From assembly GCF_006345805.1 (NCBI RefSeq), contig NW_021835865.1, positions 1-37,858 of the forward strand: a DNA stretch of 37,858 bases, read 5' to 3'. Source of the DNA: Octopus sinensis (taxonomy: Eukaryota). The notes under the pieces were generated by a model. That model made no database searches. It was not told where the DNA came from and was given only the letters and a program-made list of their open reading frames with translations. Position 1 is the first letter of the stretch; every line of letters starts with the position of its first letter. The translations under genes were made by a program, and so were the position numbers. This document shows, piece by piece, positions 33,771 through 33,840 of the stretch.

Positions 33771-33840
33771 GAACGACCCTTCATCAGTTGTCGGCTGTAG
33801 ATCTACTCCTCATTTCGAGCATTCAACGACAACGATATAT
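33771..33840 (-). ncRNA. non-circularly permuted hammerhead-like motif in family P variant
   Basis: TATCG-TTGTCG-TT-GAATGCTC-GAAATG-linker-CGACAA-CTGATGA-A-GGGTCGTTC. Confidence 0.55.

Follow-up and report, generated by a model that had tools for sequence, protein, structure and literature searches.

A hammerhead topology in animal retroelements, split by a predicted four-way junction and with predicted self-cleavage

Introduction

A short minus-strand segment of the Octopus sinensis genome, at positions 33,771–33,840 of contig NW_021835865.1 (assembly GCF_006345805.1), carries pieces of a hammerhead ribozyme in an unusual order, and raises the question of what kind of RNA these pieces belong to. 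The stretch of DNA analysed here, termed the window, comprises positions 1 to 37,858 of that contig (37,858 nucleotides, nt). An earlier note, made from the letters alone, described the segment as a permuted hammerhead with stems I and II paired, one of a repeat-borne family that might represent an undescribed system. We find that the flagged copy is only part of a larger conserved RNA, corresponding to its 3′ half. This larger RNA is probably a retroelement-borne hammerhead core in which a four-way junction separates A9 from G10.1 and which cuts the RNA of its carrier element, and the flagged copy would then record a template that had been cut. As judged from sequence, it constitutes a new hammerhead topology in animal retroelements, with self-cleavage predicted.

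Type SGC hammerheads (HRIMA-1 and a variant), in which the cleavage block (S) precedes the GAAA block (G) and the CUGAnGA block (C), were named by Eckert, Friedrich, Weinberg and Weinberg in 2023; the data on rearranged hammerheads all came from assembled metatranscriptomes, with a single GCS candidate from a bacterial RefSeq record and only two CSG sequences, and block C was assumed not to be interruptible by more than 1–2 nt (PMC10085705). Naiads, a group of Penelope-like elements, were reported to be without canonical hammerheads, some being flagged as ‘HHR_core’ or ‘HHR_half_core’ that fitted no descriptor (PMC8557442).

Results

The flagged locus is a truncated copy

The motifs listed in the earlier note are indeed present on the minus strand (TTGTCG at 33832-33827, GAATGCTC at 33824-33817, GAAA at 33816-33813, CGACAA at 33793-33788, CTGATGA at 33787-33781 and AGGGTC at 33780-33775), and so is the reported behaviour of stem I, TTGTCG:CGACAA here, which differs in sequence yet pairs at 32.0 kb (TCGCC:GGCGA) and at 19.0 kb (GAGAG:CTCTC). 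The ‘TATC-G’ that had been taken for a degenerate cleavage strand has to be abandoned. Homology to an intact copy of the same repeat, family A, begins only at 33832, immediately 3′ of the predicted scissile bond, and ‘TATC-G’ is therefore flanking DNA. Intact family A copies have CTCA-TA before TTGTCG, which pairs with GAAA-TGAG to give a stem III of 5 base pairs (bp). The U-H of the hammerhead core is absent from the flagged copy; because the cleavage block and the upstream strands are missing, it is no working candidate, and the locus is a dead copy truncated at the predicted cut site. The flagged region alone does not fold unusually strongly (z –0.42), and the insertion terminates near GTCCTGTACCC (33586-33596), within an AT-rich repeat. 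Assigning the flagged copy to type II (G-S-C) was also tried and rejected, as by visual inspection its stem III would comprise just 2 bp and no stem I hairpin is present.

The intact fold

Covariation gives the strand order of the intact RNA as IV-5′, hairpin V, II-5′, III-extension, III-5′-U-H, I-5′, II-3′-GAAA-III-3′, I-3′-CUGAnGA-IV-3′. The strand 3′ of CUGAnGA is not part of stem II, as had been proposed, and instead forms a separate helix IV (GACCCT:AGGGTC in family A, CCCCT:AGGGG in family B and GGGG:CCCC in family C), while stem II draws its 5′ strand from upstream (GAGCA:TGCTC, GAAGG:CCTTC and GGGGCC:GGCCCC, respectively). In all three families, the stem II 5′ strand is directly preceded by hairpin V, itself directly preceded by the helix IV 5′ strand; the octopus genome also contains a Naiad family in which the upstream stem II and hairpin V are present and helix IV is weak. 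The pairing of GAATGCTC with GGGTCGTTC, put forward in the earlier note as stem II, can be drawn in family A and is not conserved. Family C cannot form a stem II of this kind at all, because CCCC faces CCCC.

In the matches to the strict four-way pattern described below, the linkers between IV and V, between V and II, and between A9 and IV are all 0 nt. Stem II adjoins G12, with its 5′ strand upstream, and the G10.1-C11.1 pair is G-C in 21 of the 23 strict matches and G-U in the other 2. Helices IV and V are predicted to make a four-way junction between A9 and G10.1, a step taken as unbreakable in the published permutations. The catalytic core itself is complete, with CUGAnGA, GAAA, U-H and U16.1-A15.1 as invariant columns of the alignment.

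Relatives, controls and covariation

An alignment of 25 proteins resembling that of the R2-like family C element was used to collect 79 loci in metagenome contigs (27–60% identity to the query); 13 of these were dropped, having fewer than 150 nt after the match, and the remaining 66 tails were analysed. The best core order by stems I and III was S-G-C in 42 tails and S-C-G in 1, with none in 23, and 31 of the 42 S-G-C cores passed a relaxed four-way test. Pooling the relatives with the four families of the octopus genome and removing near-copies left 34 dereplicated cores, 23 of which pass a strict test that demands 0-nt linkers and at least 4 bp in each of II, IV and V. Controls pass far less often: 38/1122 with upstream regions swapped between cores, 131/1122 with the strands after A9 swapped, and 39/1700 with the upstream region shuffled. 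The cleavage site lies between stems I and III, both of which covary, the S-block swap being the one that passes in 38/1122.

A structure-blind MAFFT alignment of 32 of the 34 cores (L173 and L225 left out) agrees with this layout. The upstream stem II is the only helix that RNAalifold predicts from the 32 rows, and the top 10 of 3769 pairs by corrected mutual information fall in stem I (5), the upstream stem II (4) and the stem III extension (1). The named pairs are formed in 94.5% of cells, with no slid register above 49%; stem I is 99% paired (partly by selection), and the upstream stem II reaches 87%, 4 of its 5 pairs having changed on both sides. Helices IV and V are not alignable by sequence, and their support comes from the strict test and from pair probabilities, which exceed 0.5 for IV in 23/23 and for V in 19/23 strict matches. 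Of the two stems paired in the earlier note, stem I covaries, and the post-CUGAnGA stem II is not supported, its partner lying upstream.

A working hammerhead requires a U16.1-A15.1 pair and a residue 17 other than G. When positions 15.1, 16.1 and 17 were left free in the search, U16.1-A15.1 was present in 44/44 matches and G17 in 0/44. In a quick protein tree (67 rows), the motif occurs on all main branches, several of its absences are close sisters of carriers, and the ribozyme keeps its position just after the stop codon. R2-like protein relatives were also sought in viral contigs, and none was found there.

Two side observations concern these relatives. The 3′ untranslated regions (UTRs) of one seven-member subclade (L170, L171, L187, L190, L196, L220 and L242) may carry another structure. 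In L177, L179, L191, L194, L211 and L219, a common stretch follows the ribozyme in otherwise unrelated contigs, which suggests a shared target or a second repeat.

Carrier families in the octopus genome

The RNA is carried by four families in this one genome: two non-coding tandem repeats (A and B), a Naiad Penelope-like element, and an R2-like element (C). The flagged stretch is itself a repeat copy, with at least 41 matches from the 40 of 1517 first-look candidates that were scored, and its exact anchors occur 754 and 2206 times in the genome, compared with 0 for reversed controls. The 32.0 kb and 19.0 kb loci belong to two other repeats (519 and 451 exact anchors), and the Naiad family has 184 exact pattern matches and 0 in the control. 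The note’s central description, a repeat-borne hammerhead core of non-circular S-G-C order with a covarying stem I that models of types I, II and III miss, is borne out by these results.

Units of A and B are ~0.8–0.9 kb long and 62–65% alike in local alignments, contain no coding open reading frame (ORF), and recur on the same strand at spacings of 785–867 nt (B) and 901–907 nt (A), as tandem or partial tandem copies. With 5′ truncation, inverted copies, partial tandems and microsatellite (TA) targets, both families have Penelope-like traits, and they appear to behave as passengers of Penelope-type elements. They resemble retrozymes without long terminal repeats (LTRs) in being non-coding tandem units; the hammerhead in each unit is not of type I and has the four-way S-G-C form. 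A Penelope-like reverse transcriptase (RT) with a C-terminal GIY-YIG domain adjoins one family B copy (L050). It is not established as the partner of A and B, because 10 near-intact copies of this type have no S-G-C core of their own. These copies belong to a young Penelope-like family (L131:3764-7123, L132:2710-5841 and related loci) whose near-intact ORFs reach 1120 codons and encode a long asparagine-rich N-terminal part, the RT, a cysteine linker and the C-terminal GIY-YIG.

The family C ribozyme lies in the 3′ UTR of a non-LTR retrotransposon. The element encodes an RT, then a CCHC zinc knuckle, then a PD-(D/E)xK nuclease, its best solved relatives are R2 proteins, and its copies have a fixed 3′ end and variable 5′ truncation; it is accordingly placed among R2-like elements with a restriction-like endonuclease (RLE), in a clade that we take to be HERO. 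At L091, two copies stand head to tail on the minus strand (812 and 4549), with their ribozymes 3737 nt apart. No RNA dataset was among those listed as containing the sequence. Contigs from 3 of 4 presumed RNA runs cover the unit of family B, and their summed depth is higher 3′ of approximately the predicted cut; these data carry no weight here, since contigs can show neither ends nor levels.

Genomic 5′ junctions at the predicted cut

Were the RNA cut at the predicted site, a reverse transcriptase copying the 3′ product would be expected to stop just downstream of it. For family B, 99 hits (among the 100 places listed) were anchored ~57 nt downstream of the predicted bond; 21 of their 5′ junctions fall at –2 to +14, compared with 7 at –60 to –3 and 16 at +15 to +59, and the peak per copy-base is higher than either side (p = 1e-7 and 8e-6). 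In the same bins, family A gives 5, 1 and 3 junctions (30 loci; p = 0.018 and 0.10). By visual inspection of 100 rows each, family A has 21 junctions within 12 positions 3′ of the bond and 7 within the 34 positions 5′ of it, and family C has 5 truncations, 2 of them exactly on the bond.

Published Naiad 3′ ends

The terminal 400–600 bases of 19 of the 54 published Naiad consensi were inspected by eye. The S-G-C order was recognized in 6/19 (two octopus, one squid, one ctenophore, one hydrozoan and one box jelly), 5 of which have the upstream stem II; helices II, IV and V are clear in the hydrozoan Naiad-3_Chem and the box-jelly Naiad-2_Movir. Another 4/19 (three nematode, one spider) appear to be of type CSG, stems I, II and III being well paired, and the remaining 9/19 held nothing assignable in the stretch viewed. 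The four type CSG ends (Naiad-2_Nbra, Naiad-3_Nbra, Naiad_Hpol and Naiad_Smim) each have an extra helix flanking the C block, also by eye.

Other features of the window

Within the window, a loose pattern (stem I, GAAA and CUGAnGA) has 2 matches, a number reached by 0 of 200 dinucleotide shuffles of the window (5/200 reach 1), which exceeds chance. The full S-G-C core matches once (seen in 3/200 shuffles), as does the four-way form (0/200). Among the 150 of 225 Rfam matches listed for the window there was no ribozyme, and none of the 5 Rfam matches at four relatives’ loci (L166, L168, L188 and L190) was a ribozyme. Of the ‘up to five instances’ anticipated, remnants exist at five loci (33.8, 32.0 and 19.0 kb, 18207 on the plus strand and 18022 on the minus strand), and the core is intact at 19.0 kb only (Table 1). 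The 32.0 kb family B copy keeps every strand, the upstream ones of helices V and II included, and its core is broken: one A of GAAA is lost, and CTGAAAA is read in place of CUGAnGA, with loss of G8.

Two further hammerhead-like sites and several small RNAs lie in the window. At 16803-16855 on the plus strand, a type-I-like hammerhead has CUGAAGA at 16809, a bulged hairpin II, GAAA, a stem III CCAG:CTGG with a 1-nt loop, and UC, and resembles the dimer type of Penelope-like elements; at 31273 on the minus strand, CUGAUGA with a possible downstream stem I partner and a GAAA that is not intact may represent a deleted type I hammerhead. A tRNA tandem array occupies 5848-7300 on the plus strand (period 170 nt, 8.6 copies, long variable arm, UAA anticodon by eye, i.e. 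Leu), with scattered copies of the same tRNA at 3737-3992, 25344-25426 and 28095-28177. A U6-like sequence at 27156-27243 (plus strand) scores 42.2 bits, slightly under the Rfam gathering score of 44 bits.

Table 1. Coordinates of hammerhead-related features in the window.
Feature	Position	Strand	Remark
Stem I 5′ strand, family A copy	33827..33832	-	First base 3′ of predicted scissile bond is the homology start
G block: stem II 3′ strand (TGCTC), GAAA, stem III 3′ strand (TGAG)	33809..33821	-	Partner strands both absent in flagged copy
Stem I 3′ strand (CGACAA) and CUGAUGA core	33781..33793	-	
Helix IV 3′ strand (AGGGTC), immediately 3′ of A9	33775..33780	-	Partner in intact copies is upstream GACCCT, not the strand before GAAA
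Entire 5′-truncated family A insertion	33579..33832	-	Interrupted by CT microsatellite 33657-33746
Flank, previously read as cleavage strand	33833..33840	-	Outside the element
Near-complete family B non-coding unit	31806..32572	-	Ribozyme region ~31966-32098
5′-truncated 3′ end of R2-like (RLE) non-LTR retrotransposon with intact predicted ribozyme	18887..19228	-	Fixed 3′ end of element at ~18888
Intact predicted four-way hammerhead, family C	18948..19060	-	
Family C, helix IV 5′ strand	19051-19048	-	
Family C, hairpin V	19047-19032	-	
Family C, stem II 5′ strand	19030-19025	-	
Family C, cleavage block	19011-19001	-	Predicted cut at the 19006/19005 bond
Family C, G block	18997-18984	-	
Family C, stem I and core	18976-18965	-	
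Family C, helix IV 3′ strand	18964-18961	-	
Family C, distal extension	19060-19053 with 18955-18948	-	
Further A/B-like copy, 3′ half (G and C blocks)	17994..18051	-	Without cleavage block
Further A/B-like copy, C block and tail	18207..18372	+	Head-to-head with 17994..18051 copy across TA-rich spacer

Discussion

The proposal of an undescribed system holds in part. The S-G-C order has been in print since 2023 (PMC10085705); what is new is that the core is split at A9/G10.1 and that the hosts are animal retroelements. Type SGC hammerheads and the present RNAs share the S-G-C order (42 of the 43 cores in 66 tails), a full core, a short link between stems I and II, and mutually crossing stems I, II and III. 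The published stem II uses the strand right after CUGAnGA, whereas here that strand belongs to helix IV and stem II comes from upstream, and the sources are metatranscriptomic rather than animal retroelements (PMC10085705). Because block C is interrupted, we do not file the RNA as type SGC despite the like block order. In the pseudoknot (PK) hammerhead of Zhan et al. 2024, an upstream stem-loop likewise contributes to a helix stacked at the place of helix II, the pseudoknot joining loop II to the loop of an upstream hairpin; there, however, A9 and G10.1 are linked, G10.1-C11.1 closes the loop, the block order is circular and no four-way junction occurs at that step (PMC11300833), whereas here hairpin V precedes G10.1 and A9 is followed by helix IV.

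Similar comparisons apply to the hosts. Type I and minimal hammerheads of Penelope-like elements and non-LTR retrozymes share the position near 3′ ends or pseudo-LTRs and the tandem, inverted and 5′-truncated copies, but those are type I ribozymes whose helix II is local, and they often act as dimers (PMC4209133; bioRxiv 10.64898/2026.07.22.740005), whereas the present RNAs have long stems III and are monomer-like. Naiads are alike in hosts, TA targets and ribozyme location (PMC8557442), and the Naiad 3′ end of this genome matches the octopus consensi. R2 elements with HDV-like (hepatitis delta virus-like) ribozymes share the R2-like protein and a predicted self-cleaving RNA in an untranslated region, but theirs sits at the 5′ end (PMC6765202) and the one described here is a hammerhead in the 3′ UTR. 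Literature searches confined to open-access text turned up no hammerhead split at A9/G10.1 and none of non-circular order in animal retroelements; the same holds for the passages available from PMC13725137, PMC10162972, PMC3088659, PMC4209133 and PMC6765202.

In the mechanism that we propose, helix II would stack under A9-G12 as in any hammerhead and helix IV on V, with the strands crossing at the A9/G10.1 step; because the strands cross there with II under A9-G12, the active site would be ordinary, with G12 as the base and the G8 2′-OH as the acid (PMC11300833). This step is known to tolerate a small insertion: an unpaired base occurs there in the SGC-1 and SGC-2 oligos and in known hammerheads, being common at the 5′ end of stem II in those of Penelope-like elements and retrozymes (PMC4209133). 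For families A and B, the ribozyme would cut read-through transcripts, yielding RNAs that start at the cut and setting the 5′ ends of templates. A Penelope-like RT acting in trans, for which Naiad is a candidate, would then copy these RNAs from the tail into TA repeats; running off at the cut end, it would leave the pile-up of 5′ junctions. For the R2-like family, a cut in the 3′ UTR may process tandem or read-through transcripts. As helices II, III and IV bridge both products, the cut RNA would remain base-paired, a possible reason for most copies crossing the site.

In favour of this account, four families with different helix sequences share one layout. A number of results weigh against it. 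Copies are mostly decayed, with core plus four-way form in 4/29 and 2/30 of A, 24/100 of B and 3/10 of C, and 11 of the 34 cores fail the strict test. Among the 32 aligned rows, 23 had already passed the stem II test and stem I was a selection criterion; given this pre-selection, the swap controls are a cleaner test than the alignment statistics. In a nested energy model, pair probability exceeds 0.5 in only 4/23 strict matches for II, 2/23 for I and 9/23 for III; these helices cross, which such a model cannot score. The seven-member subclade, which is supported, lacks an S-G-C core up to 450 nt from the stop codon. No autonomous partner of A and B emerged, in that the 160 loci searched with a Penelope-like RT (a search without a Naiad protein query) gave no reproducible link. 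In the junction data, bins were set once family B had already been inspected, inversions caused four loci to be counted twice, ~95 of 100 family C rows cross the predicted cut site uncut, and the mode lies at +5 to +8, not at 0. The latter two observations would also be expected of a hammerhead-shaped platform that does not cut and serves RT binding or pausing, or 3′-end handling, with the junctions piling up through polymerase stalling or microhomology. Such a platform would suit the location in the 3′ UTR, since cleavage there would remove the end needed for reverse transcription, and the A9/G10.1 break may not be tolerated by an active ribozyme. Against this, all catalytic positions are kept (U16.1-A15.1 and a non-G residue 17, both 44/44) across proteins 27–60% identical to the query, and junction density drops ~eightfold at the bond rather than at the 3′ edge of the structure, where stalling would put the drop. 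We consider a non-cutting platform unlikely.

The other alternatives are much less probable. The S-G-C order, together with the 4 bp including G-U pairs that can be drawn in families A and B, might suggest an ordinary type SGC hammerhead as described by Eckert et al. 2023, with stem II formed by the strand after CUGAnGA; indeed, when one base is inserted in the register, 54.5% of cells are paired, above all 500 column shuffles. Slid registers are as high (59.7%), however, the other register reaches 45.2%, and runs of at least 4 bp occur in 5/34 cores compared with 48/1122 swaps (mean 1.3 bp vs 1.06). With 0 bp in family C and many relatives, and pair probability above 0.5 in 0/23, this reading is very improbable and largely refuted by the swaps, registers and pair probabilities. 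Little more can be said for a ribozyme that cuts but merely rides on retroelements or attenuates their full-length RNA, which we rate as slightly less probable again: Craig et al. 2021 suggest that hammerheads may parasitize Penelope-like elements (PMC8557442), and one subclade of R2-like relatives is without the motif, but the same site just after the stop codon is held across a deep protein tree, and two retroelement classes that are not related to each other carry the RNA. Chance pairing that was then multiplied as repeats were copied can be practically discounted. Copies within a family are not independent, and a repeat-rich window inflates motif counts; nevertheless, helix sequences differ between families yet pair, and controls pass in 2–12% compared with 68%. 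Chance is refuted by the swap and shuffle controls, mutual information, pair counts and the free-position test (44/44).

On balance, and with less assurance than for the flagged locus itself, we favour a broader interpretation of the retroelement-borne hammerhead. It would be a seventh natural hammerhead wiring, active and crossing at A9/G10.1, and an ancient 3′-end module of R2-like RLE and Naiad elements across animals; its cut would be recorded in thousands of 5′ junctions and, together with type CSG, it would account for many of the Naiad hammerheads reported missing. The scheme of six hammerhead permutations assumes that a stem II strand follows CUGAnGA, and a widespread natural exception adds a topology, whose interrupted link between CUGAnGA and stem II explains the misses by descriptor and Rfam searches. 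Helices IV and V adjoin the core and would offer natural points of attachment for switch design. In R2-like elements, which are used for gene insertion, the predicted ribozyme lies in the 3′ UTR, and 3′-end handling matters in that use. Non-circular hammerheads thereby shift from rare metatranscriptome RNAs to animal genomes with thousands of copies, and permuted hammerheads appear to be present in the published 3′ ends of Naiads, for which spread without canonical ones had been reported.
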